DNA of 64,000 nt from a bacterium (GCA_006226965.1 SBGQ01000174.1:27919-91918); one strand, 5' to 3'; shown: positions 1,781-25,836, counted from the stretch's first letter. The notes: generated by a model not told the origin, from the letters alone. Translations and numbers: made by a program.

Positions 1781-1987
1781 TTATTTCTTTTTTGATCGTA
1801 GTTTTCGAAGTGCATATGCTGCTCCACCGGCAGCAATAATGCCAAGTCCGCCATCGATTGGCGCCTGAGACGGCGCTTGTGGCATTCCCGGTGGTTGAGC
1901 ATATCCGGATTGTATAGAAATAACAATCAGTAAAAGCAGTATTGAAAATAAAAGACGTAACAATTTTGTTAATGCTGAATATTTCAT
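1781..1987 (-). CDS. 68-aa mini-protein: signal peptide, short Pro-rich linker, P-I-D-G-G motif, one hydrophobic helix and a basic tail (C-terminal sorting-signal-like)
   Basis: MKYSALTKLLRLLFSILLLLIVISIQSGYA|QPPGMPQAPSQAPIDGGLGIIAAGGAAYALRKLRSKKK. The start codon lies 3 nt after the stop of the 1608-aa gene. A paralog with an identical core lies at 11821-11991. Confidence 0.6.
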   Translation of the reverse strand: MKYSALTKLLRLLFSILLLLIVISIQSGYAQPPGMPQAPSQAPIDGGLGIIAAGGAAYALRKLRSKKK

Positions 1988-1990
1988 GAT

Positions 1991-4900
1991 TTATTTAATT
2001 AGAGTCATTTTCATTGATTTATACATTCTTCCGTCTACACTCAAGGTGTAAAAATAAATTCCACTCGCTAAAGCTTCTGCATTGAAACTCTGTGCAAATT
2101 CACCGGCTTTAAATAGCCCTGAAATGGGCTCCGATACGAGTCTTCCAAGTACATCATAGACTTTAATTGACACCATTCCTGCGTTTGCCAAACTAAACTT
2201 AATCGTTGTTGTCGGGTTAAACGGATTCGGAAAATTTTGATATAAAGCCATTTGATATGATTTTTCCTGAGATTCATTGGATGTGGCTACCCCTGAAATA
2301 TCCAATCTAAATCTGTTTGATGTGTGTTGTTGCATGTGCACAGACGGCGCTTTCGTTGCATCAACACTAGTTTTTTGTGCGTTTTTCTCTAAGTCAAATG
2401 TATATGGTGTTGATAAGTCCGTTTCAGTTTGGGTAAGAATATCAACCAATTTTACATTCCATTCACTTGGAAACATAGTTTTGTCTAATGAAATTGTATG
2501 TCTTCCGCTTTCTGAACTGTTTACTTCAACAGGCAAACTAAAGTTGGCCACAGTTGTCGGTAAGTAGTTTATATCCATTACGTTTCCATCTTCTGAAACT
2601 GTACCAATTTGTACATATTTACTTGAAATCGGCGCTAATTTTAAAGCATCTTTTTTGTCTTTGTTAAATTCACCGTCTTCAGCAAATTGAATCCACGAAG
2701 TGTTTTTTAAGCCAGAATTATGAGTTATCTCTAGCTTAATCGCTGATATTTTCTTCGCCACTTCTTTTCCGAGAAAGGCATTCCCATCGTAATTTCGCGC
2801 AGATTGATAAATGGTTAGCGAAGGTGAATCATATTCGGTTTGTACAAAAAATCCATTTAAAGGCCCGATTAGTCCATTCGTCAACGAACCGACTGAACCA
2901 TTCCATGATTTCCATTCCGAATCGCTATTGTCCCATACATAGATGGATGAACTCAAATTACCTGGCGATAAACTATTCCAATCCAGATTAGCAATAAACG
3001 GATTTCCCAATAGAGTTAATCCGCCGACATTCTGATTTAGAAGGCTATCCACTTGTACATCGTTATATGAATCTTCAAAACCAGTAAAACTTATTTCTTT
3101 AGGAAATCCGGTATCTCCTTCTACTCCGGGACCATTATCATCACTAAACACATAAACCAGAACGCCTTTACCTCTTCGCAGGGTATCACTTAAGGAAGTG
3201 ATACTGTTCCAATTACTTAAAGAATCGTGATCAGTTGTGTTGTCCCATGTGTACACGTTAGAACTTCCGTGTGAAACAGAAGCGCCATCAAAACCTTGTG
3301 TCCAAATATCGGATAAAAGTGCTGAATACGGTTTTGAACCAACAGGCAATGATAATAATCGCCAGCCTTCTGTCCCGCTAAGCGTCAATGTTGCTTGTGG
3401 GTCTTGCAGATATAATTGGAAGTTATCATAACGTGCATACACGATGTCCATAACTCCGTCATTATTAAAATCTGCACTTTTATATAAGTAATAGCTGTTT
3501 TCAGGATCTAAAACAGCATAATCCGCAAAATTTCCACTTCCATTGTTAAGACGCACTTCAATCTCATCACCTTCACTAACCAAGATGTCTAAATCTCCGT
3601 CCGAATCCGCATCAATAAGATTTAAAATCTCGCCATATTTGTCGGCTTCATAACTATAAGGACTAGTAAACTCGCCATTTTCGTAAATAAAAATATAGAA
3701 ATCGTAATCATAGGTTGAGACTACCATATCCTTATCGCCATCGCCATCCAAATCTCCAAATTCAATTCTATTTGAGGAGTCAATCATAAATAGTGTTTGT
3801 GCATCTCCTAAGTAGGTATCACCAACATTTTCAATCCAATATATTTTTGGATCATCAGAGCCTTCGCTTACAACCAGATCTAATAATCCATCGTTATTCA
3901 TATCCATTAATTGAAAGCCTAAATAATCCTCTTCTGAATAATCTGTCGAAAAGGTTCCCGTAGTTACAAATTCTTGACCGCTATGATTTTTGAACACTTC
4001 GATTTCATAGTCTTCATAAATAACCAAGTCTATAAATCCATCATTATCTAAATCTCCAGCTCGCATTATTAATGCATCGTTAGATACGGAGTAGTTTTCA
4101 GAGGTTGTGAACGTACCGTTTCCATTATTTCTAAAAATGACTAACGCATTATAACCGGATGTAGCAATATCTATATCGCCGTCATTATCAAAATCTGCGG
4201 CTACAATTCCTAACACATAATTAGAGATATCGTACTCAACAGGAGTGGCAAAAGTACTATCCTGATTATTGATATAGATGTAGGTTTTCATGTTGGAACG
4301 GGATAAAATCACATCTGTGTAACCGTCACCATTTAAATCTGCCACCTCCATTGCCGTCGGATTTCCTGAATAACTATCCGTAAAGTAATCAGAAAAACTA
4401 CCTGCCCCAGGATTTGTAGCAATAGTGAATGTATAGGACTGAGAATTTTCAAAACTGTTATTTTCACCAAGAATATCTTTACTTAAACTAACCGTAACCG
4501 TTTCGCCTTCTTTGAAATCTGTTGTTGGGTCAAATATCAATTTGGCATTGCCATTGGCGTAGGAAATACTTCCGGCATGATTACCGCTTAAACTTCCATA
4601 TACTAAAAAGGTTGAATCGTTAGTAATGGTTGCTGTATCCAATGCATCACTAAACGTAATCTCAATATTTGTTGATTTTGAAACATTTAGACTGTTTTTT
4701 GCCGGACTAACTTGGGTTACATAGGTTGTTAACTCAATTTCTATGGATGATGTAGGTGCATCGGTTAGTAAATATTTTTCTACTCCTGATTCCCCGTTAA
4801 ACGAATACACCGCTATATAATACGTTTCGCCCGGCTCCAGATTTGTAATTCTCATTTCTGTTGATTGACCATTACTTATCACAAAATTACCGAAACCCAA

Positions 4901-6817
4901 TTCATCACCTGAACCAAAGTTCAATGAAGCATCATACGTAACTCCGTCTACCGGACTGGCATCAACAGCACTTCCCTGCTTCATAACAACCAAATTATTT
5001 ATTCCATTTCCGGCTGTAAAGGATAAATCAGCTGATGTAACTCCGTTGTTTTCTAAAGCCAGACTCGAAACTTGTACCGTTGGTGTAGATAGCGGTAAAT
5101 CAAGATTGTATTTATCTGATAAATAAGTTGCTACTTCTAGCCGTTCTTCTACACTAAGTTTTTTGTTGTAAATGATAATCTCAGCAATACGTCCACCCAT
5201 ATATGCGTAGGAATATTGACTATCTGTACCGATATAAATGGTATCGTCATCACCATTTTGAAAATCGAAACTATCATTTGAACCGTATAATTTTCCATTA
5301 ACTCTTATTTCACCGAGTGAACTCGTTCCACTTGCATTAACTACGTGAAAATTATTATCAAAAAATTCTGATGCCACACCTGCGCTTACCGATGCATTAC
5401 TGTTACCCCAAAATGCAATGCCATTTTCATACTCAAGTAATTGAATAAATGGAGCGGTTTGCCCGTAATTATTACCAATTATTGGAACATAATTGGCTTG
5501 ATTGGCTTGCACTACAATAAACATATCGTAGTCGGAATTTTGAATACCTAAGTCTCCCGATGTTGGCAATTCCATAAATTGAGTTGATCCATTGAATTGA
5601 ACTGCTCGAAGACTGTTTATTGCATTTTCAGTAACCGTTGGTTGAATACTATTATTAGATTGTTCGGCATTGTTTCCTTTTCCGGTGAGGTCGTGCCATA
5701 CAGAAATTGGGTCATCACTATCATAGGTATCCAAGGTTAAATCTGCGGCATACCACAATTTTAGACTGTCTTTTGTAAATGTTGTATTACCAACCCAAAT
5801 TGCCTGCATTTCTGAATAAACAGTCCCGTTTACATAGTTTGCGGCTAAGCTAGCATAATAAACGGTGTTTGAATCTAATTCTGTAACCTCAAATTGGATT
5901 GCATCATTCGAAATACCAGTTCCACCATTTATTACACTCGTTGTTGTAGATAAAGAATTAGGATTAGTGCCATATACTAATTGATAACTCGTGGTTGATG
6001 AAGTTTCAACAGTGGTACTAAACGTAAAGGATGTTGTTGAAGTATTGCTTAATTCTACATTTGTAAAGACAGGTTCTTGATTAATTCCGTATTTATTTTC
6101 TAAGTAATCTTCAACTGAATTTCTGTCTGTTTCACTTAATTCTGCACTATAAATAATTACTTCTGCTATATCGCCGCTAAATGGCAAGGTTAAATTTGAA
6201 CGAATTCCTAAATAAAGTGTCCCGGCATCATCTGTCTGTACATTCAATGCGCTTACTGTTGAATCAGCTCCATTCACTTGAACAATTCCATTCGAAGCCG
6301 TAGCTCGCATATTGAATATATAAGGCGCCGCATTTGAATAATCGCCAATAGAACCTTCATCAATATAGATTGATGCTTTGGGTATAAAACGAACTCCGGC
6401 GGAACCGTTCAAATGAACTTCATATCGTTCTATTGAACCACCTAATAAAAATATTGTGCTTGTTGTAACACTACTCGTTTTTGCAACAATGAATATTTCG
6501 TAATCATTGCTTTGAATAGCGAGCGTACCGGCTGATGGAAGAGTTAAATAATCATTAACTCCGTCAAAACGAATAACCGGATATCCGTTTATAACATCAT
6601 TTACGATAGTCGGTTTATTGGTTTCCGAAACTTGTGTTACCGAGTTTAGATTACCGGACTGATCTGCCCATGCACTAACATATCCGCCCGATGAGGTAAC
6701 TCCGGCATTAGCTTTAATATGTAATTCTAAATTCGTTGTTGGTATTTGTGCATGTAATAAAGTTGCCGAACTGAACACCAGCACAAATGTGAGTAGTTGA
6801 ATAGATAATCGTTTCAT
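1991..6817 (-). CDS. Giant secreted T9SS cargo protein (1608 aa): 2 LamG-like jelly-roll domains, FN3/Ig-like domains, FG-GAP/VCBS repeat block, conserved C-terminal module, T9SS C-terminal sorting domain
   Basis: Signal peptide (LLHA|Q). LamG-type signature DIAEVIIYSAELSETDRNSVEDYLENKYGI occurs twice. There are 7 or more D-x-N/D-x-D-G repeats (DLNGDGYTDV, DFDNDGDIDI, DLDNDGFIDL, DMNNDGLLDL, DLDGDGDKDM, DADSDGDLDI, DFNNDGVMDI) at about nt 3430-4400. The C-terminus NFPNPFNPTTTIKFSL...GIYFYTLSV...MTLIK is typical of T9SS type A CTDs. Confidence 0.85.
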   Translation of the reverse strand: MKRLSIQLLTFVLVFSSATLLHAQIPTTNLELHIKANAGVTSSGGYVSAWADQSGNLNSVTQVSETNKPTIVNDVINGYPVIRFDGVNDYLTLPSAGTLAIQSNDYEIFIVAKTSSVTTSTIFLLGGSIERYEVHLNGSAGVRFIPKASIYIDEGSIGDYSNAAPYIFNMRATASNGIVQVNGADSTVSALNVQTDDAGTLYLGIRSNLTLPFSGDIAEVIIYSAELSETDRNSVEDYLENKYGINQEPVFTNVELSNTSTTSFTFSTTVETSSTTSYQLVYGTNPNSLSTTTSVINGGTGISNDAIQFEVTELDSNTVYYASLAANYVNGTVYSEMQAIWVGNTTFTKDSLKLWYAADLTLDTYDSDDPISVWHDLTGKGNNAEQSNNSIQPTVTENAINSLRAVQFNGSTQFMELPTSGDLGIQNSDYDMFIVVQANQANYVPIIGNNYGQTAPFIQLLEYENGIAFWGNSNASVSAGVASEFFDNNFHVVNASGTSSLGEIRVNGKLYGSNDSFDFQNGDDDTIYIGTDSQYSYAYMGGRIAEIIIYNKKLSVEERLEVATYLSDKYNLDLPLSTPTVQVSSLALENNGVTSADLSFTAGNGINNLVVMKQGSAVDASPVDGVTYDASLNFGSGDELGFGNFVISNGQSTEMRITNLEPGETYYIAVYSFNGESGVEKYLLTDAPTSSIEIELTTYVTQVSPAKNSLNVSKSTNIEITFSDALDTATITNDSTFLVYGSLSGNHAGSISYANGNAKLIFDPTTDFKEGETVTVSLSKDILGENNSFENSQSYTFTIATNPGAGSFSDYFTDSYSGNPTAMEVADLNGDGYTDVILSRSNMKTYIYINNQDSTFATPVEYDISNYVLGIVAADFDNDGDIDIATSGYNALVIFRNNGNGTFTTSENYSVSNDALIMRAGDLDNDGFIDLVIYEDYEIEVFKNHSGQEFVTTGTFSTDYSEEDYLGFQLMDMNNDGLLDLVVSEGSDDPKIYWIENVGDTYLGDAQTLFMIDSSNRIEFGDLDGDGDKDMVVSTYDYDFYIFIYENGEFTSPYSYEADKYGEILNLIDADSDGDLDILVSEGDEIEVRLNNGSGNFADYAVLDPENSYYLYKSADFNNDGVMDIVYARYDNFQLYLQDPQATLTLSGTEGWRLLSLPVGSKPYSALLSDIWTQGFDGASVSHGSSNVYTWDNTTDHDSLSNWNSITSLSDTLRRGKGVLVYVFSDDNGPGVEGDTGFPKEISFTGFEDSYNDVQVDSLLNQNVGGLTLLGNPFIANLDWNSLSPGNLSSSIYVWDNSDSEWKSWNGSVGSLTNGLIGPLNGFFVQTEYDSPSLTIYQSARNYDGNAFLGKEVAKKISAIKLEITHNSGLKNTSWIQFAEDGEFNKDKKDALKLAPISSKYVQIGTVSEDGNVMDINYLPTTVANFSLPVEVNSSESGRHTISLDKTMFPSEWNVKLVDILTQTETDLSTPYTFDLEKNAQKTSVDATKAPSVHMQQHTSNRFRLDISGVATSNESQEKSYQMALYQNFPNPFNPTTTIKFSLANAGMVSIKVYDVLGRLVSEPISGLFKAGEFAQSFNAEALASGIYFYTLSVDGRMYKSMKMTLIK

Positions 6818-6872: not shown

Positions 6873-6909
6873 GCAAACGTGTCAATTATCTGCGCATTTG
6901 TGTCAAAAA
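6873..6909 (-). promoter_or_regulatory. Conserved upstream motif of the giant genes, copy 1. Transcription sense: TTTTGACACAAATGCGCAGATAATTGACACGTTTGC
   Basis: Near-identical to 21841-21876 (2 mismatches in 36) and related to 11595-11629. It contains the direct repeat TTGACAC-N14-TTGACAC. It lies exactly 61 nt upstream of the ATG, as does the 21841 copy. Confidence 0.4.
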
Positions 6910-6950: not shown

Positions 6951-6957
6951 GTTTCGC

Positions 6958-9900
6958 TTATTTAATCAACATTAATTTTTTTGTAACCACACCTTGTTTA
7001 CTGCTCAGTCTATAAAAGTACAAGCCTGATGCCAGATTTGATGCATTAAACTGTACTTGATGATATCCCGCATTTCGCATTCCGTTTACTAAGGTCTGCA
7101 CTAAACGACCTGTTACATCATAAATCTCTAGACTTACCTGATCTGCTTTCGGCAAAGAAAATTTTATGGTAGTACTTGGATTAAACGGGTTCGGATAGTT
7201 TTGAGCGAGTTCAAATTGTGCGGGAATCTGCGATTCGATGCTTGTGACTTCGCCACGTTTTATGCTTAACACGAAACGGTTTTCCATGGCTGTTTGACCC
7301 GTGATTTCAGGCTGTTTGCTCACATCAATGGCTTGCTTTTTGGAAACCGTGTTCGAAACAAAGCTGAGTTTGCCTTCACGGTTGATGAATGCTCCCGATT
7401 GTGTGTCGTGGAGTTCTACTTTCCAGTCTTGGGGCAAGTTTACATTCGAGATTGCCATTTCGTGTGTTCCCGAATACGTGCTGTTCACAAAAACCGGAAT
7501 TTCCACTTCGTTAAACTCTATCGGTAACTGATTGCTATCCAGTAATTTTCCGTCAGCGTCTTGGGTTGAGATTTGCACATAATCCCATGACAAAGGAACG
7601 AGTTTTAAAGCGTCGAGTGCGTCTTTTCCTTCGAGTCCATGTTCAGAGAATTCAACCCAGGCTTTGTTCGATTTACCTGATTCGGTATTAATCTGCAATT
7701 CAACCAAAAATTGATTTTTTGCCACTTCTTTGCCCAGAAATACCGAATTACCTTCCACTTTTGCTGATAATGGTACACTTAGTTCAGGAGAAGCATCCAT
7801 AGTTTCTACAAAAAAGCCATTGAACGGACCAATGAGCCCATTGGTGAGTCCGCCTGTGCTTCCATTCCAGGTTTTCCATTCGGATGCTGAATTATCCCAC
7901 ACATACACCGAGCCGGATAAATTGGGTTTACTCATCAAATCCCAATCGATGTTGGTGGAAAACGGATTTCCAACTAAGCTCCAGCCATTTGTATTTGGAT
8001 TGATGAAAGAATTCATATTCACATCTGCGCTTGGACTAAATCCATCGGCTCGTAGTGTTTTGGGGAATCCGGCATCGGTGGCATTGTCCGGTCCATCATC
8101 ATCGCTGTAGATGTAGGCTAAAATGCCTTGACCCGGAGTAAAGGTGCTGGCTGCATTGGTAAGCGGTGTCCACTGTGTAGAATCGCGGTTTCCGGAATTG
8201 ATCGGCCAGGTATAGACATTCGCTGCGCCTTGTTCGAACGCCGCGCCCGTAAAGCCTTGTGTCCACAGACCACGGAAAAACGAAGCGTACGAAGAATCGG
8301 CAACTGGCGAAGAAAGCAAGCGCCAGCCTTCGGTTCCTGTAAGACTCGCCGACTCGTTTTTGTAGTTCTGAATGGCATATTTCTCGAATAAATGTGTTTC
8401 TACTTGGTTTCGTTCTGCTGCGCTGAGTACCTTGTTGTAGATAATCACCTCTGCAATGTCTCCATAAAAGGTGAACGAATTATCAGCTCTCACACCCAAG
8501 TAAAGATGACCGGCCAAACTACTTCGGGCGCTTCCTGCGTGAGTGGTTTGCGTACGATTTACACTCATTACCCCTTCTGTATCCGACGCCCGCATATTAA
8601 ACACATGCGGCTTGGTATCGGTATAGTTTCCGGCAGTTCCCACATCCACATATTTTCCCGCATTGGGGATAAACCGCGCTCCAGCGGCTCCATTTAGATG
8701 CAACTCATATTGTTCCAGAGATTCGCTTCCAACCAGAAAATTAACAAAACTCGAATGGCTCACTCCCGATTGGGCAACTAGAAACAATTCGTAATCGGAA
8801 TTTTGAATTCCTAAATCCGCTGCGGTGGGAAGCGTTACATACGTGTCGGTTCCATTAAAACGCAATGCCGGCAAATGGTTGATGGCGCTATCCAACACAA
8901 CTGCTCGTCGCGCCAAATTATCCTGAAAAGCATTCTGATTGGCATCTGCCAAATTGCTCCATGTATTCACCGAATCGTTGGAAGTGATAAACCCAAGCCG
9001 TCCTGCATCCAGATGCAGTTTTAAATTTCCGGTGGGAATCGGACTTGGGAGTGTGGTAAAATTAGCGATTCGTGTAAATAACGGTTGATCTAGATAATCT
9101 GTAGAAAGAGACCCATCATTTAAGAAACCATTTCCAAAGGCTCCATAAGCTTTTGTTCCTTCTAAGACCCAGCCAAAACTTTGAACTGATCCATCCCCCA
9201 TTAATGCCAATCCATGATAAAGTTGTGCAGTAAAATCAATTACTTTTTTACCATCCAAATCGGAGCTTATCACCTGATAAGGAACCGTTCGATCTAGTAC
9301 TGGGCTTGTATTAAATCCCGCATATCTCACGGTTCCCCAGCTGAATAGTCTTCCGGATTCTGTACGTAACATTGAACTTTTAAATCCGGCTGAAATACTG
9401 AACACCCTTTCCCCATTGAGCATGGTATCAATAATTGCTGTGGGCGTTTTTACAATGGTTGAATTTTTATACCCGAGTCCCAATGCGCCATCAGAATTTT
9501 CACCCATAGCAAGTACTTGGTAATCTTCATTCAAAAACAGGAAGTGCGGAGAAATTACTGCACCTCCTCGATCTAAATATCCAATTGAGGCATCCAGAAT
9601 TTTCTTACCACCTACATTGATATGAGAAGCTAAAGTAGGCACATTCAAATCATTGGAGTTTCCAAAACCCATGTAATCATTGTTACCCTCTCCCCACATA
9701 TACACTGTTCCATCTGAAGCAATAGCAATACTCTGAAGTTGCCCTGCTACTACTTTCACAATGGATTTACCGGATAGATTCGCGGTTACCGGAGTAGGTA
9801 CAAACCGGTTTTGAAAATCTCCAACTCCCAATTGGCCACTTTCGTTATTTCCCATGGCAAAAACAGTTCCATCGTCTGCCAATAAGAGGGTATGACTATT

Positions 9901-11594: not shown

Positions 11595-11629
11595 GCAAAC
11601 TGTTTAATTATCTGCGTGAACTGTTCAAA
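11595..11629 (-). promoter_or_regulatory. Degenerate copy of the conserved upstream motif (sense: TTTGAACAGTTCACGCAGATAATTAAACAGTTTGC)
   Basis: It shares the CGCAGATAATT core and the GTTTGC tail with copies at 6873 and 21841. It lies upstream of the 1523-aa gene. Confidence 0.3.
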
Positions 11630-11820
11630 TTCGTACAAACGGCTTAATCTTTAACTTTTAATCAACTACTCCTATATGATTCAAAAGCATAAGGTGTAAA
11701 TAAACAAGACTTCAGTTGCAGTAGTCCTTATACCGTACTCAATTTACTCGAAATCGGATTGAATTTCATGTGACAAAATATTTACTAAACTGAGTCGTCT
11801 TGGGCATCAAGTTTACATGA

Positions 11821-11991
11821 TTACTTTTTCGATTTTAGCTTTTTGAGCGCATAACCTGCGCCGGCGATTGAAAGCACAGCGATTCCGCCATCTATAGGCG
11901 CCTGAGACGGTGCTTGTGGCATTCCCGGTGGTTGTGCGAATAGAATTTTGGGGGATACAAGTAGAAATATGGTGAGTAAAAAGGTTTTCAT
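11821..11991 (-). CDS. 56-aa mini-protein, paralog of 1781-1987 (signal peptide + QPPGMPQAPSQAPIDGG + TM helix + basic tail). Absent from the ORF track because it is under 60 aa
   Basis: My own translation gives MKTFLLTIFLLVSPKILFA|QPPGMPQAPSQAPIDGGIAVLSIAGAGYALKKLKSKK*. The 18-aa core is identical to the 68-aa ORF and about 45 nt are nearly identical at DNA level. It lies 95 nt downstream of the 3232-aa gene on the same strand. Confidence 0.6.
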   Translation of the reverse strand: MKTFLLTIFLLVSPKILFAQPPGMPQAPSQAPIDGGIAVLSIAGAGYALKKLKSKK

Positions 11992-18000: not shown

Positions 18001-21000
18001 TTGGGTATAAAACGTGTTCCAACTTCGCTTCCAGGACGAGTATGTATTTCGTAATTCGGAACTGGACCTCCCATTAAAAAACCAATCGAAGCAGACGAGG
18101 TTTTGGCAACAATGAATACTTCATAGTTATTGTTAATCAAACCTAAAGAATCAGTTAAAGGCAATTCCAAAAAGTCTGAAGAACCATCGAATCGAAGTAC
18201 AGATACGCCCGAATCTGTAACTCTTGTTGGACTATCAGCGACATTGATTTGATACGCTTTTGTTGCTTTACCAGATTGGTTCGACCAATTGCTAACCGCC
18301 TCACCTGAACTTGCAGTATAAGTTGCCTGATCTCCCGAAGCCCAAAATTTTAGTGACGGAAGACTGATGTGTTCCCGATAGGTAAATGTCACTATTTCAG
18401 ATTCGGTACTTCCGCCAACGTTTTCAGCAACAACTTTATAATAATATGTCGTATTTGCTGATATTCCTGAAAGTGCTATTTGAACGCTTTGTTCGGACGA
18501 TTGACTCCCAACTGCTTGTGCTGATGTACTCATGTTCAAATTATCATACGATGTTCCAAATACAACCTGTGCCGTTGTAGCGTAGCTATTTGGATTCACA
18601 AAAGCTATTACACTTGGCGTTGATGTATGGGTATTTTCAACCGAATACAAGGAAACGGCAGGTGGAATTACACTAGTCGTAGACTGGTTGGTTGATGCGG
18701 TTGAAGAAGTTCCATAAATCGGCAATCCTTCCATGAGATCGTATTCATATACATCGATAGTATATTCTGAACTAGCTGCTAGTCCGGTTAAGCTAACAGA
18801 CGTTCCAGTACCCTTTCCCACAACATAATTGCCGTTTCCAATATGTGATCCACTTCCAAAATTTGGATTGGCAGAATACGAAACACCTTCAGTAGGAGCT
18901 GTTTTTTGTGAACTACTAAGTCTGGCAACGATTAATCGTTCAGTCCCATTTCCTGCATCCATTGAAACCGAAAAACCGGTTGGTTGAATAGATGTGAAGG
19001 CGAGATTGGACGCTTCAATCGAAGGAATTGAGGGATTATATACAGAAACAGCATATCGGGTTGACAAGTATTGGGAAATTTCCATCCGTTGTTCCGCTGA
19101 TAGCGTAGATGCAAAAATCATTATCTCTGCAATTTGACCAATAAAATCTCTGGAACTATAGTGATTAATGCTTCCAAAGTATATTTCTGTACTAACTAGG
19201 GTTCCAGTATTCGCGTTTACTGCATAATCCCCATTATCAACCCGAATTGTTTTCGATGTTGAATTCCCTTTAAAGTGCATCACATGAGGATTCCCATCTG
19301 TGAATGCGTTTAGACTACCCGTATTCGCTCTATCATAATAACTTCCGGCTGACAATCCCGCTCCAACATTTGTACCTATTTCCAGTAAACTGTTGGTTGA
19401 TGTTGAAAGCAGATATTGTTGATTTGTATTGGTCGTTTTAAAAACGATAAAAATCTCTATATCCGTATTGATAACACCTAAGTCCGATGCACTTATTCTT
19501 AAATCGTTTGAGCCCGTAAATTCGAGTGCTGTTTTACCATTAACTGAAAGTGTTCGTGCTGGTGCTCCACTACCTAATTTTAGATCATGCACGTTACCAG
19601 ACATGTCTTTAAGAAAATTATTATTTGCTCCACCAAGTATATAATCCCCATAATCTGCTCGCCACCACGCTTTCATATCTGTGGTACTCATAGGAATAAA
19701 CATAAACACTTCGGACTCTACTGATCCTCGTAAGTTGGTGACTCTAACCTTTCCGTAATAAGTCTGACCTAATGTCAATCCTGTAACAGTAAGGGTATCA
19801 TTAAGATCTACTGCTCCGCTACCAACGGAATGACCGGCGGCTGTAGACCCAAAGGTGATATTATCGGTACCATATATAAAGTCTGCCGTAGTTTCCCATC
19901 CATTGGGATTCACGGCATAAACAAATGATCGCGTTGTTGCGGTTCCATCACCGTGCTCAACAGCCGATAAGGTTGGAAATGGGACAAGCGTTGTACTCTG
20001 CGAACCTACTGCCGGGCTTGTAGTTTTAAAACAAATTGTCCCGTTGTATTCATTGAATTCATACACCGCTACAAAGTAAGTAGTAGAATTTGATAAACCG
20101 GTAAGCGTAAACGAATTTCCATTGCCTTTATAGGCTACATAATTACCGCTTCCTAAATCTTGTCCGCTTCCAAAGCTCGAATTAGCAGAATAGTTTTGTC
20201 CATCGCCAGGAATTGCACTTACTGCTTGACCTTCTCTTACTATTACCAGACGATTTTGCCCATTTCCGGCAGTAAATGAAACAGTCATTTGATCTAATCC
20301 AACAGAAGAAAACTGCACGGCACTTGCAGAAGATGAGGGATATGTAATTCCTGAATTTACCGGAGGATTTACAACTTGATATTTTGGAACACCATTATAC
20401 ACTTCATATTCGTAAGCGGCTAAGTGATAAACGGAACTTGCTGCAAGCCCGTTTAGGCTAAAACTGCTTCCGTCTGATCCGGCATAAATCACATAATTTC
20501 CACTTCCAATTTCAGAGCCAGCTCCGAACGTTGCGTTTCCCGTGTACGAAACTCCATTTGATGGTGCTTGATTTACAGCACTTCCTGCGCGAGCTACAAC
20601 CAAACGATAGGTACCGTTTCCGGCAGAAACACCGCCTGTAAAAGCATTATCGGTTCTACTTATAATGCTTAATGAGCTAGCCTGAGTTAAATCTACTGTT
20701 GTTTGATTTCCTGAAACTGCACTTCCATATTGTGGAACGCCACCCACTAAATAGTATTCATAAACAGCAAAATGATAACTTGAATTAAACTCTAGTCCGC
20801 TTAATGCTGTTGATGTTCCATCTGTTCCGGCGTAAATAACGAAATTTCCATCACCTAAATTCGAACCGGCACCGAAAATTCCGCTTCCGGTGTAAGCAAC
20901 TCCATTAGTCGGCGCAACAGTAACAGATCCACCTTTACGCGCAACTACAACGCGATGTGTACCCGAACCTTTTGTTAAATTCACATTCATCGAACTCTTG

Positions 21001-21785
21001 GTTACACCTGTAAAATTGAACCCACTTGCCGGAGTTTGAGGTGCGCCATAAGCTGTAAACGGAGTCGAATATTTGTTTTTAAGATATTCCGAAACCTGCA
21101 TGCTTTCTGCATTGCTCAATTTTCGGTTATAGACAATAATTTCGGCTATATCCCCATCGAAACGATTAGAACCGTCGCTACGTGTCCCTAAATTAAATGC
21201 TACATCTATTGCATGGGTTCCATCACCCGCAGTAGTTGCAAAAACCCCGTCAACTCCCAATTGAATATTCGTTGTGGTTGCCACTGCATTTATTAAATGG
21301 AAAGCGCCATTATCTGCATCCGCCGGGTTATCTACAAATAAACCAGATTTTGCAATATAGCGAACCCCGCTAGCGCCATTATAATGAATCTCATTAAAGT
21401 TGATACCGCCGGCAAACGGAAATTGAACAGCAGAAGATGATGTTCGAGAAACTATAAATATTTCGTTTTCAGAATTTACTAAACCTAATGTTGAATGAGT
21501 CGGCAAATTCATATCCGTTGGCGCCGAAGGGTTAAATCTTACCGCAGGAATTCCGCCATCATTCACATATGTTGGTTGCCAATTCGTATTCGCTTCGGTT
21601 GCATGAAAACCATTTCCGCTTTGGTCATTCCATTGAGAAATTTTTTGGCCAGGTGTTGTAGTTGAAGTTCCTGCATCAGCTTTTAAATGAAGGCGCAATC
21701 CGCTTGTCGGAATTTGCGCAGTTGCATTTGGAGTAAATCCAAAAAAACTGATTAAAGCCAATAAAAGTGTGACGGTAGTTTTCAT
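12087..21785 (-). CDS. Giant secreted T9SS cargo protein (3232 aa): about 7 LamG-like domains, many FN3-like repeats, Gly-rich Pmp-type beta-helix region, conserved C-terminal module, T9SS CTD
   Basis: Signal peptide (NATA|Q). The signature DGDIAE(I/V)I(V/I)YN recurs. About 100-aa FN3-like units ending in VYEY/VFEY recur. GGA(I/V)F / FxxN motifs lie in a Gly-rich block at about nt 16680-17710. The CTD is nearly identical to that of the 1523-aa protein. Confidence 0.85.
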   Translation of the reverse strand: MKTTVTLLLALISFFGFTPNATAQIPTSGLRLHLKADAGTSTTTPGQKISQWNDQSGNGFHATEANTNWQPTYVNDGGIPAVRFNPSAPTDMNLPTHSTLGLVNSENEIFIVSRTSSSAVQFPFAGGINFNEIHYNGASGVRYIAKSGLFVDNPADADNGAFHLINAVATTTNIQLGVDGVFATTAGDGTHAIDVAFNLGTRSDGSNRFDGDIAEIIVYNRKLSNAESMQVSEYLKNKYSTPFTAYGAPQTPASGFNFTGVTKSSMNVNLTKGSGTHRVVVARKGGSVTVAPTNGVAYTGSGIFGAGSNLGDGNFVIYAGTDGTSTALSGLEFNSSYHFAVYEYYLVGGVPQYGSAVSGNQTTVDLTQASSLSIISRTDNAFTGGVSAGNGTYRLVVARAGSAVNQAPSNGVSYTGNATFGAGSEIGSGNYVIYAGSDGSSFSLNGLAASSVYHLAAYEYEVYNGVPKYQVVNPPVNSGITYPSSSASAVQFSSVGLDQMTVSFTAGNGQNRLVIVREGQAVSAIPGDGQNYSANSSFGSGQDLGSGNYVAYKGNGNSFTLTGLSNSTTYFVAVYEFNEYNGTICFKTTSPAVGSQSTTLVPFPTLSAVEHGDGTATTRSFVYAVNPNGWETTADFIYGTDNITFGSTAAGHSVGSGAVDLNDTLTVTGLTLGQTYYGKVRVTNLRGSVESEVFMFIPMSTTDMKAWWRADYGDYILGGANNNFLKDMSGNVHDLKLGSGAPARTLSVNGKTALEFTGSNDLRISASDLGVINTDIEIFIVFKTTNTNQQYLLSTSTNSLLEIGTNVGAGLSAGSYYDRANTGSLNAFTDGNPHVMHFKGNSTSKTIRVDNGDYAVNANTGTLVSTEIYFGSINHYSSRDFIGQIAEIMIFASTLSAEQRMEISQYLSTRYAVSVYNPSIPSIEASNLAFTSIQPTGFSVSMDAGNGTERLIVARLSSSQKTAPTEGVSYSANPNFGSGSHIGNGNYVVGKGTGTSVSLTGLAASSEYTIDVYEYDLMEGLPIYGTSSTASTNQSTTSVIPPAVSLYSVENTHTSTPSVIAFVNPNSYATTAQVVFGTSYDNLNMSTSAQAVGSQSSEQSVQIALSGISANTTYYYKVVAENVGGSTESEIVTFTYREHISLPSLKFWASGDQATYTASSGEAVSNWSNQSGKATKAYQINVADSPTRVTDSGVSVLRFDGSSDFLELPLTDSLGLINNNYEVFIVAKTSSASIGFLMGGPVPNYEIHTRPGSEVGTRFIPKSGYYIDNPINSTDGEFHIINAKATSSSGGLRIDGNSVTGNSNALVNASGNLILGARRDGTYYFDGDIAEVLIYNAELTELELAHVEHYLAAKYAVTLPYYFVTNTLDDNVGSGQYGSLRYVLNTINTAAPEATTVVDMSKISGTITLTSDLPAINYDMQINGPGSGSLTISGNNLYRPFFIGSGLTPFTPEIPAAPTVTMQGLAVTNGYGKGGNAYSIGGGGAGMGAAIFVNDGNVTLNNMLFEDNTVQGGASYSAGGGSGQGGGFASDALNSNGGYSGYLGGNPGVELGESGGVGAGGNSGRPNGGHGGFAAGGGSGAVVTQQSDPINGGNGGFGGGGGAAAEPNGIWLERTPGVSAFGGGSATYSGSTNYGGGGAGMGGAVFNRSGQVFIQNSVFNRNTAIGGIGGQNTEINNGKSYGGAIFNANGVVILSNNTFGTAANANVASNEADFYDYSDIASSLITVSDESNISETSFDLHAQFESFGLSGTYRVIYGANASNLSSVTSSQNFDGSIAQITVNETINSVDLTNFLFYKIEVSFAQGVYTSDLRRIMHDESVPSDSLKLWLSAGRGLTISTGSSVAAWLDGTSIENDFVQTGIPNQPVVVQEGINSQPVIRFNGINQYLASLNPENLGITDSDYELFIVLKSASDAIQFVWSAGVGHKEIQLNGSSGVRFISTGDKYVDAGSSTQYTDGTARIINVQSTDALGSIRVNNELVGLLNSSTRSANVSDPILGTRTGGSFYYDGDIAEVIVYNKALDISTRNTINAYLSGKYAIDLVNVSEPTIQASSPQVISKTTNSLGFSVHKGNGSKRFVLAKATTAVDAVPVDGNIYSPNSVFGSGEQLGTGNYAIPVVSDSTIYLTGLTPGTTYNIAVFEYNGVYEKDYLTTTPLTFSTKTLTSVPTNSASSAIAIGGADEGVRIAHNPEFIVDKFTLELWFNPTAGVTDVPFLTAMDGEELEIHLINSNKSIRFIPTVGVYLDSPANVFEFGKWNHIAVSYNPDESFARMVINGNEVALTNNGSNPLTTALRNTGLDLLLGARKSYALCFEGQIDEFRFWNDIRTVEEIRSGMFTNISSGFENLLVNLQFNEGSGTTTVDPISGTNAVLENMEFNGTNGWRDSAIPFGQGDYAAFTDLTSGSLNASDLNITITEDFDNTVSVLTKRFTVEPNLIPSGNTINLNNQYWVVYEAGNAGAYKASLTFTVPESLMKFGEVHPTQFTLYRRDFGSVGNWQEIRSSANSTTSNTVTFDTLSQFGQFMIARDFTVGFDDFAGSSILFDGTNDFLSIPYNSAFTINKLTMEFWFKWSHSGSAVEFVVSRGSEEWEVHLGMGSNGIRFIPRYGVYIDTPAEAFTPGEWTHFAAVYDPSQSLGKIYINGVDATGATSGSLAQAIMVTNNPVNIGRRQVSQNLHFAGEIDEFRIWNSARTQQEISDNKNSSLSDDYYPDLVAYFQFNEGGGTLTSENQNDLSASMSNFNYDSGSNWKNSTIPMNQTISNELTFTGTEGWRLVSTPVVDSTYASFFDGIWTQGFTGATVPNGFSNVYTWPINGSDRDSTNWVPLSNAASSFQRGSGALVYVFSDDNGSEVEGDAGFPKTLQIDGFTPYGDVNLNSLLNPNAGGWTLLGNPFNTNIDWDLVNKTNVTEAVYVWDNSASTWKTWNGSVGTLSDGIIGSFNGFFVETSASSPTLSISETAKVTSDAIFLGKANTSSQNESNTKEIVALSLQVKNNQGLENESWIEFSNEGLLNKDRFDAIKLVPLTSEYVQVSTQLENGKLLDINTLPLEFSQLDIPVHVNSTFNGTHQLSLQAPSVPEHWTIRWFDTQSGVEYAMDDVITFDYAVSVKKSQSENSNKPEIQSQSTSESRFILRIKNNLVSSIENEIPTEFGLSQNYPNPFNPSTTIKFSLPKADQVSLEIYDVTGRLVQTLVNGMRNAGYHQVQFNASGLASGLYFYRLSSKQGVVTKKLMLIK

Positions 21786-21840
21786 AGTATCTCAAACATT
21801 GGGTTCTTAACGCTCCACGAAGCTACCGATAAGCATCCGC

Positions 21841-21876
21841 GCAGACGTGTCAATTATCTGCGTATTTGTGTCAAAA
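21841..21876 (-). promoter_or_regulatory. Conserved upstream motif of the giant genes, copy 2 (sense: TTTTGACACAAATACGCAGATAATTGACACGTCTGC)
   Basis: Same sequence and same 61-nt distance to the ATG as the copy at 6873-6909. The leader end CCCAAT(T)GTTTGAGATACTATG is also shared. Confidence 0.4.
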
Positions 21877-21933
21877 GCACTCGTACCTTGACATAAATAT
21901 ATTTTTAAAAATATATCACCATTTTTTTGCGTG

Positions 21934-24900
21934 TTATTTCCCGGCAATAGGGTGTTCGCCAAACCGTTCCTGATACATTTTTCTAAAGCTGGTTGCACTT
22001 TTGTAACCCACCATATTTGCCAGTTCTTCTAAGCGAATGGTTTTATTTTTTGATACCAAATCTCGTGCTTTGGTTAAACGAACTTCGCGTATAAATTCTG
22101 CCGGAGACATCCCTGTTTCTATCTGCAAACTTCTGTAAAACGTACTTCTACTCATGGCAAAAGTTGTGGCAATGGTATCAACCGAGAGTGTTGTGTCTTT
22201 GATATTTTCTGAAATAAACACAGCAACTTTCTCTGCAAAATCGGTGGTTTCATTTAGCTCGTCTTCAGTGAGTTTAATCTTCAGAACATTCTTATTCTGA
22301 TAGTACTTCAACAAGTTTTGCGTTTTTAGAACCAATTGCTCTGCTGAAAACGGCTTGGTGATATAATCAACTACACCGATTCGTAACAACTTAGTGCGTT
22401 CATCATCCAGAGCTTTAGCGGTTAACACAACCACCGGAATGTCTTTCCATTTTTCATGTTCCGATAAAATCTGAATCAACTCAGTTCCATTCATTTCCGG
22501 CATCATTAGATCGGTTATGATGATATCCGGTTTTATTGTTTCTAACTTTTCTATTGCTTCACGACCATTTTTTGCCCATTCAATTGAACCAACCTGTTCA
22601 AGTATCGAACTAATGTAGTGCTTCAAGTCGTCGTTATCTTCAACCAATAAAACATTAACATCTTTAAGAGTAACAGGCTTCGTTTGCTTCGCTTCTTTCC
22701 CTCTTTCCAAGAAATGTATTTGTTCGCTGATTCGATACACTTCACCCGAGTTCGTTGAAATCGGCAGCTTTAATTCAAAAACGGAACCTTTCGGGTGATT
22801 CGCTTCCACTGTAATATCACCGGCATGCATTCTCGCTAAGGTTCGGCTCAACTCCAAGCCAACTCCCATTCCTTCCACATATTCGCCGTCAGGCTGAGAA
22901 ATGCGGTGAAAACGCTCAAATATGGATTCCCGTTTTTCTTCAGGAATTCCAAGTCCATTATCAGCTATGCTGAATACAAAGTAGCCATTTCGCTGAAAGG
23001 TTTTTATGATAATGTTCCCGCCGTCCGGTGTGTATTTAATGGCATTGGAAATCAGATTGTTTATCATGATTTCTGTGTTCGACTGATCTATTTCAATCAC
23101 AATATCTTCGTCGCTTGGCTCATAAATAAATGTATGACCATGATACTCTGCCAACGAACGAAACGATTCCACACAGAGATTCACCAAATCAGAAGCCACA
23201 ATATTTTTTTTGTTTAGGATAAGTTCATGATGATCGGCTTTGGTGAGTTCAATAATCTGATTCACCATATCATGAAGCCGCAACATATTCCGTTTTGCCA
23301 TCCATAAATCGTATCGAGTGCGTTCGTTTGGCAACTCGTCTTTATCGAGAATTTTTGTAATTACCCCTTCGCTAATCGTTAACGGTGTTCTGAATTCGTG
23401 TGATACATTGGCAAAAAATCGTTTTTGAAACTCATTGGCTTGTTTCAGTTTTTTCGTTCTATCTAGAACTTCATGTTCCAATTCATCTTGACGTTTCAAT
23501 AATTGACGTTCACGCAAACTCACAAATCCCCATAATCCACCGAAACCAATCAACATATACATTGCATATGCCCATAACGTTCTGTACCAAGGCGGTAACA
23601 CTCTAAACGAAAATGATGCTAATTCTGAATCTTTTGGATATAAAGATCCGCCCTTCACTTTAAAGGTATAGTTCCCTTCGGCCAAATTGGTGTAATCGCG
23701 ATAGCGTTCACTAGTCCAATCAGACCAATCTTTGTCTAAGCCCTCCAATTTAATTTGATAGTACAATCGGTCTTCGGGCAAGAACGCAATCATGCCATAA
23801 TTAAATCGAATTTTTTGATGCTCATATGTAATCGGAGTCTCTAATTCACTAGATGACAAACCTCTTGGCTGGAGTAAAATCGAATCTTTGTTTAAAACAA
23901 CGGAATTGATGTGTGCTTTAAACTCCGGCAAAGGCTTTGTTCTTAAAGTGGAATCAAAATAAGCTAGTTTTTGAGCGTAGGTTTGTAAGTAAACTCGGTT
24001 TTTATCACTTGGAAGAATAAAGTCGATGTCACGATAGGGTGCTGTTCGTGTGAATTCACCATCGTACCAATCAAATACCTTGCTTTGGGGATTATACACC
24101 GCTTTACCAATATGTGCGGCAGCCCATGCTAACCAAATTCCTCCATTTTTATCTTGAGTGACCGGCCAAACGGACTTATCCTGCAGTTTGAAAATCTCTG
24201 CAAAACGATCATCAATTACGATAGAATCCCGATTTTCAGTTAACCGATAAAATCCATTAGAAGTTATAAATCCTACATCATTACCAACCTCCATGGTATA
24301 ATTAAACCCATTGGTGGGGAGCCCATTAGCTGTTGTAAACTGACGAATTTTCTTAATGGAAATGATTTCGTTATTCGTTTGTTCACTTACAAAATGAAAA
24401 TCCCCTTTTGAACCGGTTCCTATCCATAAATCCCCATTACGATCTTCGTGGAGTGTGTACGATCTGGGTGTGTGATCAGCTAATTTAGTCTCTTTGTACT
24501 GGGTAGGTGATTCCAACACCAATTTCCGAAGTGAATGTTCAAAATGAGAAAAATAAACCACATTGGGATGTTCTCTATCCACAAGCACCATATCAACAAT
24601 TCCTTCTGTATAGAGGGGATAAAACCGGCCTGTTGTATCCAACAAAAACAAACCCTTCATTCCACCCACAAGCAATCCAAACTTGGTTTTTTTTAAGGTA
24701 TATACACGTTGATCCGTAAAAATTTGCTTAAAACGTCCATTTTCCCACACATACATCCCATTAAACCCTCCCAAATACAAATTACCATTGAATTCTTGCG
24801 AAAATCCTGTTTGCTCCGGAAGTCCTTGTGATGGTAAAAACTCACGCATGCCACGTCCAAACTCAAGAACACTTACCCCATTCAAACTGCTTACCCATAC

Positions 24901-25836
24901 ATTCCAATCTTTATCCTGATAGAGTTTTATTAAAAAATTATTGCACAATCCATCTGACTCATAAATTGTGTATAGGTAGCTTCCTTTCTGATCAAATATG
25001 TACAAACCGTTCGATGTAGCAATTACTAAGTAACCCGAGTCGGTCCATAAAAAGTCGTGCACCGATACAGGTACATTTTTTAGTGTAGCGGATACATCAG
25101 CTACTAAACTCCATTGTTCTTCTTCTCCAAACTCCCATAATTTGAAACTCCTATCCCACACCATTAATCGATTAGTTGATGATTTCATGAGATGAGCGTC
25201 TTTAATCTGCTTTGGTAAGACAAGCTTTTTTGAAGCTTCCTTAGAAGTAAAAAGCAAGGAGCCGTCCTCTTGCAAACTCACGATTTCATCACGCCAAAGA
25301 GCAACTGAAATTACTGGCGTATCGTTGTGCTTCCATGTTAAGCTATGCTCTTTATGGGAATAGGTGTACCACAATTTTTTAGATATAAAGTGAATATCAT
25401 CATTAAATAGATAGGTAAATTCAACATCCTTAATTTGTAAAACTGAATCAGCAAGTAGATAAGCCAAAGACTGATAAGAACGTCTCAACAAAGAATCTTT
25501 ACGCAGTACACCAAAATCAAACTGTCCGCCAACATAAATATCGCCATCCGGATGATTTGCAAATGAAAGTGCAGGTGAATTCCCCTCCATACGCATATTT
25601 CTCCATGACAATCCATCAGACTCTTGGATTCCATATCGCGTATTTCCAAAGTACAGTAAGCCGTCATCAGCTCGGAAAATACCATAAGTCTGACGCGAAC
25701 CCACAAAATCACCTCGGCGATAGGTTTGCATAAAAGGGAACCCTTCTGGTGGACTCTGTTGCGCATCTACCTGTTGAAAGGTGAGCAAGAAGGTTAAAAT
25801 GAACGTATATACATAACAAAAACTCATGAATAACAA
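21934..25836 (-). CDS. Hybrid two-component system sensor kinase/response regulator with AraC-type HTH output (Bacteroides HTCS architecture)
   Basis: Signal/TM segment, then a periplasmic beta-propeller-like region with a Y_Y_Y-like segment (YYQIKLEGLDKDWSDW), then a TM segment. H-box FFANVSHEFRTPLT. HATPase motifs DNGLGIPEE and GMGVGLELS. Receiver motifs VLLVEDNDD...DLMMPEMNG...LTAK. C-terminal AraC HTH. Confidence 0.9.
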   Translation of the reverse strand: MLFMSFCYVYTFILTFLLTFQQVDAQQSPPEGFPFMQTYRRGDFVGSRQTYGIFRADDGLLYFGNTRYGIQESDGLSWRNMRMEGNSPALSFANHPDGDIYVGGQFDFGVLRKDSLLRRSYQSLAYLLADSVLQIKDVEFTYLFNDDIHFISKKLWYTYSHKEHSLTWKHNDTPVISVALWRDEIVSLQEDGSLLFTSKEASKKLVLPKQIKDAHLMKSSTNRLMVWDRSFKLWEFGEEEQWSLVADVSATLKNVPVSVHDFLWTDSGYLVIATSNGLYIFDQKGSYLYTIYESDGLCNNFLIKLYQDKDWNVWVSSLNGVSVLEFGRGMREFLPSQGLPEQTGFSQEFNGNLYLGGFNGMYVWENGRFKQIFTDQRVYTLKKTKFGLLVGGMKGLFLLDTTGRFYPLYTEGIVDMVLVDREHPNVVYFSHFEHSLRKLVLESPTQYKETKLADHTPRSYTLHEDRNGDLWIGTGSKGDFHFVSEQTNNEIISIKKIRQFTTANGLPTNGFNYTMEVGNDVGFITSNGFYRLTENRDSIVIDDRFAEIFKLQDKSVWPVTQDKNGGIWLAWAAAHIGKAVYNPQSKVFDWYDGEFTRTAPYRDIDFILPSDKNRVYLQTYAQKLAYFDSTLRTKPLPEFKAHINSVVLNKDSILLQPRGLSSSELETPITYEHQKIRFNYGMIAFLPEDRLYYQIKLEGLDKDWSDWTSERYRDYTNLAEGNYTFKVKGGSLYPKDSELASFSFRVLPPWYRTLWAYAMYMLIGFGGLWGFVSLRERQLLKRQDELEHEVLDRTKKLKQANEFQKRFFANVSHEFRTPLTISEGVITKILDKDELPNERTRYDLWMAKRNMLRLHDMVNQIIELTKADHHELILNKKNIVASDLVNLCVESFRSLAEYHGHTFIYEPSDEDIVIEIDQSNTEIMINNLISNAIKYTPDGGNIIIKTFQRNGYFVFSIADNGLGIPEEKRESIFERFHRISQPDGEYVEGMGVGLELSRTLARMHAGDITVEANHPKGSVFELKLPISTNSGEVYRISEQIHFLERGKEAKQTKPVTLKDVNVLLVEDNDDLKHYISSILEQVGSIEWAKNGREAIEKLETIKPDIIITDLMMPEMNGTELIQILSEHEKWKDIPVVVLTAKALDDERTKLLRIGVVDYITKPFSAEQLVLKTQNLLKYYQNKNVLKIKLTEDELNETTDFAEKVAVFISENIKDTTLSVDTIATTFAMSRSTFYRSLQIETGMSPAEFIREVRLTKARDLVSKNKTIRLEELANMVGYKSATSFRKMYQERFGEHPIAGK

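Follow-up and report, generated by a model that had tools for sequence, protein, structure and literature searches.

The DNA analysed here is a window of 64,000 nucleotides (nt) of a bacterial genome (GCA_006226965.1 SBGQ01000174.1:27919-91918), in which an island at positions 1781-25836 carries three co-directional giant genes (products of 1608, 1523, and 3232 amino acids, aa) with a hybrid two-component system (HTCS) gene upstream on the same strand. This layout, described in an earlier note made from the sequence alone, was confirmed. The relevant genes of the island, with their modules, sorting domains, and upstream repeats, all lie on the minus strand. Following the direction of transcription, the genes are the HTCS gene (21934..25836), giant C (12087..21785), the mini open reading frame (mini-ORF) m56 (11821..11991), giant B (6958..11529), giant A (1991..6817), the mini-ORF m68 (1781..1987), a TetR gene, and the gene for a short-chain dehydrogenase (SDR). 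The island probably encodes a sensor-controlled set of three surface binding proteins exported through a type IX secretion system (T9SS), belonging to a cargo class that is paired with an exosortase-substrate mini-protein.

Giant A (1608 aa) contains a signal peptide, two LamG domains, an FN3-like region, Big_5, eight FG-GAP_3 repeats, a C-terminal module, and a C-terminal sorting domain (CTD), with Pfam matches to Laminin_G_3, Big_5, FG-GAP_3 (eight copies), and Por_Secre_tail. In giant B (1523 aa) the signal peptide is followed by RCC1 propellers, one LamG domain, the module, and the CTD (Pfam: RCC1/WD40_RLD, Laminin_G_3, and Por_Secre_tail), and in giant C (3232 aa) by six LamG-like domains among FN3-like arrays, a Gly-rich region, the module, and the CTD (Pfam: five Laminin_G_3, weak fn3/Pur_ac_phosph_N, and Por_Secre_tail). 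Signal peptides with Gln at +1 and a LamG signature of the DGDIAE type, both reported earlier, were visible in all three giants. The Sec signals, read directly from the sequence, show a basic N-region, a hydrophobic core, and a cleavage site of the type A-x-A/G before Gln (...HA/QIP, ...LG/QTN, and ...TA/QIP, the slash marking the cut), and the signature G(D)IAE[VI][IL][IV]Y..LS is present in two copies in A, one in B, and four in C. The distinct payloads that had been proposed were recovered as FG-GAP in A, RCC1 in B, and weak FN3-type matches in C. A Pmp-like beta-helix, also proposed for C, was not: no Pfam family (Chlam_PMP/Beta_helix) matched aa ~1360-1730 at E≤10, and this unannotated Gly-rich region (aa 1360-1730) contains just two GGA[IV] and five FxxN motifs.

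At their extreme C-termini the giants carry a type-A CTD (1994-2233 in A, 6961-7197 in B, and 12090..12326 in C, the last assigned to repeat family D1). TIGR04183 scores for the three giants were 36.7, 51.3, and 47.9 bits (cutoff 23), those for Por_Secre_tail (PF18962) were 39.9, 50.0, and 46.6 (cutoff 27), and the profile also matched solved T9SS CTDs. Based on the domain matches and on these scores above cutoff, the giants were identified as T9SS cargo. The CTD-coding 3' ends of B and C (6959-7227 vs 12088-12356) share 89% DNA identity over 269 nt; this homology ends exactly at the stop codon, and the modules just upstream show ~54% protein identity. Such near-identity suggests that gene conversion recently took place between the sorting domains of giants B and C. 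Orthologues of giant C showed 55-56% identity over the first ~1500 aa (single high-scoring segment pair) and were 3212-3213 aa long in two loci (L069 and L017); those of giant B were full length in three loci (L058, L067, and L068), with 42% identity, and the giant A orthologue showed 38.5% identity over 1383 aa.

The last ~460 aa are common to giants A, B, and C (45-48% identity) and correspond to a module of ~383 aa plus the CTD. The module lies at 2234-3385 (aa 1145-1528) in giant A, 7198-8346 (aa 1062-1444) in giant B, and 12327..13502 (aa 2762-3153) in giant C. In agreement with its earlier description as unrecognised, it had no Pfam or NCBIfam match; LBP_BPI_CETP, the sole Pfam match at E≤10, was at chance level and was discarded. 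An AlphaFold2 model built on 23 sequences, with a predicted local distance difference test (pLDDT) of 85 and a predicted template-modelling score (pTM) of 0.85, was all-beta with two subdomains. Comparison of this model with the PDB by Foldseek gave nothing at E≤0.001 (template-modelling scores ~0.1), and a match at the level of a single subdomain is also unlikely, since Foldseek aligns locally and would have shown one. When PDB sequences were searched by profile, matches were confined to the CTD part. Among 148 distinct module sequences, the conserved residues were Gly, Pro, Trp, Asn, Asp, Arg, and Gln plus a few Tyr, Leu, Ile, Phe, and Val, in motifs such as GW-R, W-QG, LxGNP, and I-P-QGF-V, and no Cys, His, Ser, or Lys was conserved. 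This set of residues fits a domain with a binding or structural role and not an enzymatic one. The module occurs widely, with at least 325 confirmed occurrences in metagenomes. One Balneolaceae cargo of 1901 aa (L060, 4228-9930), with a B-like RCC1 N-terminus, has two tandem modules (aa 1048-1415 and 1431-1821) before the CTD.

Two of the giants are followed by mini-ORFs: m68 (68 aa) starts 3 nt past the stop codon of giant A, and m56 (56 aa) sits 95 nt after giant C. The earlier note had recognised both as mini-ORFs made up of a sorting signal only. Their presence was verified, and their signal turned out not to be of the T9SS type: m68 and m56 matched the NCBIfam PID-CTERM model NF046080 (34.0 and 29.3 bits, respectively; cutoff 26), an exosortase-type signal; both also matched Pfam PF28310 (precomputed). 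The mini-proteins consist of a signal peptide ending in A/Q (slash as above), the peptide QPPGMPQAPSQAPIDGG, a Gly/Ala-rich transmembrane helix, and a Lys/Arg tail (KKLKSKK in m56), the consensus between signal peptide and helix being QPPGMPxAPxQAPIDGG. Thus m56 and m68 have the C-terminal model match, motif, transmembrane helix, and basic cluster of PID-CTERM proteins. They do not belong to the PEP-CTERM/EpsH type, the motif being QAPI(D)GG and no exopolysaccharide neighbour being conserved in the ORF clustering described below.

The 16 close homologues of the mini-ORFs were all 56-72 aa long, with an invariant Q...P..P..P.QAPIDGG and a nearly unchanged mature peptide. An exhaustive hidden Markov model search of 1.84 billion representatives gave 1345 representative clusters at E≤1e-3; the best 150 of them were all 40-154 aa long and matched at the C-terminal end, indicating a family of mini-proteins and not a tag on large proteins. 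Comparison of the codons shared by m56 and m68 revealed nine synonymous and 11 non-synonymous differences. The non-synonymous changes are all in the transmembrane helix or the tail, and the mature peptide differs by four synonymous changes, a pattern that indicated strong purifying selection on the mature peptide. A second subfamily, AQG[VI]xFPxxPxQAPIGG (no Asp), was found in metagenome loci selected by the module, and this type is present on a contig with a protein that NCBI labels Marinimicrobia. Judged by these sequences, the Asp of PID is dispensable and the conserved core is QAPI(D)GG.

One genome per species was scanned for mini-ORFs. The 153 confirmed mini-ORF sites were nearly all in Balneolaceae/Balneolales (Gracilimonas, Balneola, and Aliifodinibius), several per genome and some in tandem cassettes, and a comparison set of 77 Balneolales loci (~1.3 Mb) was chosen by mini-ORF. 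Same-strand ORFs whose end lay ≤700 nt upstream of a mini-ORF numbered 81; a CTD (...MTLIK) terminated 74 of these 81, and 73 of them had a full module directly before it, most cargo-to-mini-ORF gaps being 10-130 nt. Within these loci a mini-ORF followed 67 module-bearing cargo genes and was missing after seven; T9SS cargo without the module was followed by a mini-ORF in 10 cases (mostly fragments) and by none in 25. Since these loci had been chosen by mini-ORF, the pairing was retested in loci chosen by the module, from a metagenome scan with 325 confirmed matches of which 80 loci were kept. The two first look-ups of module-bearing loci both showed a mini-ORF, and over the sample it followed 59 of the 90 scorable module genes and was present in 54 of the 68 loci with enough downstream sequence.

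These comparisons also changed the view of what is conserved. The earlier note had taken a signal peptide, LamG domains, a C-terminal module, and a T9SS sorting domain as the common chassis. When the LamG domains of the window were made into a profile, it matched nine of the 81 cargo genes, and Pfam Laminin_G_3 matched two of 50 family payloads; payloads across these 50 members included FG-GAP, lamin-tail (LTD), DUF285, GLUG, LamG, PKD, CBM35, and NHL. The conserved core is a variable payload, the 383-aa module, and the CTD, followed by the mini-ORF, and not a LamG chassis. The giants would thus belong to a large cargo class not annotated before, in which exchangeable, non-enzymatic payloads for binding precede an all-beta module and a type-A CTD and in which a co-oriented gene for a mini-protein of ~60 aa typically comes next; in related bacteria this pair of genes was met hundreds of times. 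The idea of module shuffling held, payload exchange being far wider than three genes (FG-GAP, LTD, DUF285, GLUG, LamG, PKD, and CBM35). Six loci (L046, L057, L062, L072, L077, and L085) contained arrays of two or three cargo plus mini-ORF cassettes ~3 kb apart, with near-identical CTDs and mini-ORFs and different N-terminal payloads, which suggests cassette duplication with payload exchange. All-against-all clustering of ORFs of ≥90 aa showed no neighbour conserved in more than nine of the 77 loci beyond cargo, HTCS-type regulators, and mini-ORF. As for a linked sorting enzyme in the Balneolales loci, the candidate clusters were only an alpha/beta hydrolase, RmuC, and a PvdQ-like acylase, and they were rejected.

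An exosortase gene was found directly downstream in 19 loci selected by the module, apparently from Marinimicrobia, and 15 of them showed an unbroken order of cargo, mini-ORF, and exosortase. The enzyme is a polytopic protein of ~170-180 aa that matched TIGR04178 (exosortase/archaeosortase signature) above cutoff and had NF046081, exosortase X, as its best NCBIfam match. We infer that NF046080 and NF046081, which have consecutive accessions, were curated by NCBI as a signal/enzyme pair. In a protein search, homologues of this exosortase were labelled Marinimicrobia or Fidelibacterota, and only sequences of that type, none from Balneolales, were returned. By the many-to-one logic of such systems, the exosortase X of the organism studied here is assumed to be encoded elsewhere in its genome. 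In the Marinimicrobia-type cassettes, the exosortase-X-like gene is often followed by a gene for a conserved, unannotated polytopic protein of ~165-190 aa without NCBIfam match (e.g., L143, 8018-8554; L131, 2446-2967; L122, 2107-2631; and L148, 4124-4630), which may be an exosortase-associated subunit.

The HTCS gene codes for a signal/transmembrane segment, a periplasmic Reg_prop plus Y_Y_Y sensor, a transmembrane segment, HisKA, HATPase_c, a receiver, and an AraC helix-turn-helix (HTH) domain. Its Pfam domains (Reg_prop, Y_Y_Y, HisKA, HATPase_c, Response_reg, and HTH_18/AraC) all scored above cutoff, and two hydrophobic segments, one N-terminal and one near aa 752-775, flank the sensor. The whole domain set of a hybrid two-component system is thus present in one polypeptide, whose true start is likely the ATG at 25827. 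Over 1287 aa it is 56% identical to the HTCS that precedes an A-type giant in locus L043.

A putative HTCS operator, TTGACAC-N14-TTGACAC in a 21-nt register, ends 56 nt before the ATG of giant C (21841..21876) and of giant A (6873..6908). The earlier note had described an upstream motif shared by all three giants. This applies to A and C, whose motifs are identical at 34 of 36 nt, and giant B has only a degenerate copy (11595..11630; 64% identity with that of A). In the window just two copies of TTGACAC-N14-TTGACAC were found (≤1 mismatch, either strand), namely the two at position -56 of giants A and C. The pattern TTGNCAC-N14-TTGNCAC occurred eight times in 2.6 Mb (both strands) of related loci, against ~0.16 expected by chance according to our own arithmetic for 12 fixed bases. 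All eight copies, each in a different locus, sit 44-88 nt upstream of an orthologous giant ORF opening with LamG or RCC1 domains, and seven lie directly after an HTCS-type gene, the eighth being at a locus edge. A sigma-54 promoter was rejected as an explanation: the TTGGCAC variants had no correctly spaced -12 TTGC, and the two halves form a direct repeat in a 21-nt register.

The A- and B-type orthologues have an adjacent upstream HTCS-type gene (HTCS or AraC hybrid kinase), the same direct repeat, and usually a mini-ORF after them. Among C-type orthologues, that of L070 has HTCS, motif, and mini-ORF, and that of L017 has motif and mini-ORF. An HTCS(AraC) gene was present ≤1 kb from 11 of 67 cargo/mini-ORF pairs, mostly those of giants of at least ~1050 aa, including all LamG giants with upstream sequence in the locus. 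Some regulator was found ≤5 kb from 28 of the 67 pairs, and other cassettes adjoin a Reg_prop kinase plus a GerE-type response regulator, a solo receiver, or extracytoplasmic function (ECF) sigma/FecR plus SusC/SusD genes. In 47 of the 67 pairs no two-component regulator was present within 1 kb, and HTCS control was therefore taken as a feature of a subfamily and not of the whole system. As judged from gene neighbourhoods, HTCS linkage is a conserved property of that subfamily, mostly larger giants including the LamG giants.

The island itself is variable. The closest contig compared, CAZIQX010000001.1 (L007/L039; ~74% DNA identity), aligned over its positions 1-3717 with window positions 339-27045, at the alpha/beta hydrolase gene (26025-27045), m56 (82%), and the TetR and SDR genes. 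The HTCS gene, all three giants, and m68 were absent at this syntenic site, which indicated an insertion or deletion of ~24 kb between close relatives, and an m56-like orphan mini-ORF remains there. A Uma2-family gene takes the place of the HTCS gene and the giants in this contig, whose metagenome-assembled genome is labelled 'Chitinophagales', yet in content it agrees with the Balneolales-like window. As a unit, the island of three giants is not conserved, and relatives mostly have one HTCS per giant. Of the earlier view that the island is one regulated system, the linkage to HTCS and mini-ORF stood, as it is conserved elsewhere, and the island as a unit did not. The giants are likewise not the scattered, unlinked paralogues which that note had considered as a refutation, since HTCS and mini-ORF neighbourhoods are conserved in other genomes.

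The orphan mini-ORF bears on an alternative in which a 3' cassette of CTD and mini-ORF is copied by recombination and the mini-protein has a function independent of the cargo, or none. Its persistence where the island is absent would agree with such hitch-hiking, as would the 89% DNA identity of the B and C CTDs in otherwise diverged genes and the near-identical CTDs and mini-ORFs in tandem cassettes of one genome. However, the pairing was kept from Balneolales to Marinimicrobia-labelled contigs, where module identity is ~30% and the mini-protein motifs are altered; moreover, selection on the mature mini-peptide is strongly purifying (m56 vs m68), and module-less T9SS cargo of the same loci usually has no mini-ORF. 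We regard this alternative as unlikely. We give the same low weight to the proposal that the island is an ordinary accessory of the polysaccharide-utilisation type, in which a glycan-sensing HTCS induces LamG/CBM-like binders and module and mini-ORF have no special role. The HTCS architecture is that of Bacteroides regulators of polysaccharide utilisation loci (PULs), LamG and CBM35 payloads occur, a Gracilimonas tropica cassette lies within an ECF-sigma/FecR/SusC/SusD cluster, and L070 adjoins SusC/SusD genes; but no SusC/SusD gene or recognisable glycoside hydrolase was found in the window's island, and this proposal leaves the conserved association of module, mini-ORF, and exosortase unexplained. 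As a statement on payload function, it is compatible with our best explanation. It is very improbable that the mini-proteins are small membrane modulators of neighbouring sensor kinases, giving HTCS feedback in the manner of MgrB on PhoQ: although they are small and single-pass, Reg_prop-type sensors often adjoin the cassettes, and the window's mini-ORFs lie downstream of, and in the same direction as, the presumed HTCS-controlled genes, the mini-ORF follows the module and not a regulator (most pairs having no two-component gene nearby, as counted above), lies between cargo and exosortase genes in 19 loci, and matches a curated sorting-signal model.

Under the explanation that we favour, namely a sensor-controlled set of T9SS-exported binding proteins paired with mini-proteins, the periplasmic Reg_prop/Y_Y_Y sensor of the HTCS would detect a ligand, probably a glycan, and the AraC domain would bind TTGNCAC-N14-TTGNCAC upstream of C and A and activate their transcription, as the conservation of the repeat suggests; the degenerate copy upstream of B would be bound weakly or not at all. 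The giants, by their domains, would cross the inner membrane by Sec and then be exported by the T9SS through recognition of the CTD. The mini-protein is predicted to insert in the inner membrane and to expose a proline-rich ectopeptide of ~15 residues, and a small exosortase (exosortase X type) would cleave it at QAPI(D)GG and, by analogy with exosortases and archaeosortases, might pass the peptide on to an acceptor, either a lipid or a glycan. The most speculative step is that the processed mini-protein may partner the 383-aa module; its most likely role would be that of an anchor or adaptor by which this cargo class is kept on the surface or matured. Sorting by exosortase and type IX secretion would then be coupled, the cleaved peptide of ~15 residues, probably linked to a lipid or glycan, being the anchor or adaptor recognised by the module; we propose this coupling tentatively and consider it less probable than its contrary.

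Several observations weigh against parts of this explanation. Giant B has no mini-ORF (the B-to-A spacing is 140 nt), nor do about one third of the module genes in the module-chosen sample, so the partner is not strictly one-to-one, and the 47 pairs without a nearby two-component regulator do not share the proposed control. The T9SS machinery genes SprA, PorV, PorU, and GldKLMN were not found in the 64-kb window, and neither the window nor the set of 77 Balneolales loci yielded an exosortase-like ORF. Where an exosortase is adjacent, its match to NF046081 (71-144 bits) is below the cutoff of 170, and the mini-proteins of the Marinimicrobia type have no Asp in 'PID'. Finally, a simple covalent attachment of the mini-protein is hard to sustain: the Gln at +1 is probably cyclised (the Q-rule of Bacteroidetes), and the ectopeptide has no Lys and is hence a poor amine acceptor. 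A role of the peptide as acyl donor is therefore more likely than one as amine acceptor. Attachment to a module Lys is also disfavoured, none being conserved in the 148 module sequences, and this favours a non-covalent recognition of a lipid- or glycan-attached peptide.

The remainder of the window was consistent with its origin from a flagellated, Balneolales-like member of the Fibrobacterota-Chlorobiota-Bacteroidota (FCB) group: it codes for flagellins, FliD, FlgK, FlgI, and a Che cluster, which indicated a flagellated bacterium, and the best matches throughout were Balneolaceae/Balneolales. The flagellar and chemotaxis cluster (39689-42450, 42882-45687, 45756-53493, and 57166-63958) contains three tandem 281-aa flagellin paralogues, FliD, FlaG, a sigma-54 activator, CheA/W/R/D/B, a CheZ-like gene, FlgL/FlgK, and FlgI. 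The flagellin genes are flanked by a gene for a 1269-aa fusion of FkbM methyltransferase and family 2 glycosyltransferase (GT2) and by two GT2-TPR genes (34410-39508 and 54713-55939), which may be a flagellin glycosylation module. Past the alpha/beta hydrolase gene that adjoins the HTCS gene, four small co-directional ORFs (27355-29580) code for proteins of 213, 128, 171, and 234 aa, the last with TPR repeats; the 128-aa ORF has a Por_Secre_tail match below threshold and is not followed by a mini-ORF. Two overlapping alternative-frame ORFs (1714-1926 and 21807-21998), without family matches, were considered spurious. Scanning for sigma-70 promoters and for terminators gave fewer matches than in shuffled sequence and was not informative.

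Compared with known systems, the giants resemble type-A T9SS cargo (Flavobacterium johnsoniae SprB, RemA, and ChiA and the Porphyromonas gingivalis gingipains) in their Sec signal with Gln at +1, their modular, beta-rich, adhesin-like body, and a CTD of ~75 aa above the TIGR04183/PF18962 cutoffs. They differ from it in having a conserved two-subdomain module of 383 aa before the CTD and in systematically preceding a gene for an exosortase-type mini-protein. HTCSs of Bacteroides control PULs (e.g., BT1754 and BT4663). The regulator described here is like them in combining sensor, HisKA, HATPase, receiver, and AraC HTH in one polypeptide and in adjoining its presumed targets; in contrast, these targets are T9SS giants and not SusC/SusD plus glycoside hydrolases, and the candidate operator is a conserved 7-nt direct repeat in a 21-nt register. 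Sorting systems of the PEP-CTERM, PGF-CTERM, and GlyGly-CTERM type were reportedly described by Haft in 2006 and 2011. The mini-ORFs share with them the tripartite C-terminal signal (short motif, Gly/Ala-rich transmembrane helix, and basic cluster), and in some lineages a small exosortase-family gene adjoins, but the sorted protein is here nearly all signal, with ~15 mature extracytoplasmic residues, and it pairs gene-for-gene with T9SS cargo and not with exopolysaccharide genes. The known systems are PEP-CTERM/exosortase, PGF-CTERM/archaeosortase A, and GlyGly-CTERM/rhombosortase (PMC7468200). In P. gingivalis, where T9SS cargo is anchored through PorU and anionic lipopolysaccharide (A-LPS), a dedicated anchor molecule is required to keep this cargo on the surface once the CTD has been removed (PMC7468200). 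Unlike this glycolipid, the candidate partner proposed here, whose anchoring role is hypothetical, would be a gene-encoded peptide processed by an exosortase.

In our literature search, PID-CTERM was mentioned in no paper, 'XrtX' and 'exosortase X' gave nothing relevant, and no paper tied T9SS cargo to exosortase substrates or gave T9SS cargo any such partner. A systematic pairing, gene for gene, between one class of T9SS cargo and a mini-protein that is an exosortase substrate appears not to have been described. Taken singly, T9SS cargo, exosortase signals, and HTCS regulators are familiar, and the exosortase itself is adjacent in one phylum; the components are of known kinds, and what is new is the way they are combined, together with the 383-aa domain and the operator. 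The 383-aa module constitutes a new domain family, absent from Pfam and the PDB. HTCS, operator, and giant together offer a clean, testable regulon outside the classical PUL setting. The biochemical products of exosortases are still largely unknown, and a 15-residue substrate with a defined partner protein would make an unusually tractable test system. If the proteinaceous anchor were true, it would take the place of A-LPS as an anchor and be provided along with every cargo gene, and the pairing points to a way in which Balneolales and Marinimicrobia lineages, outside Bacteroidia, could retain or mature their T9SS cargo.

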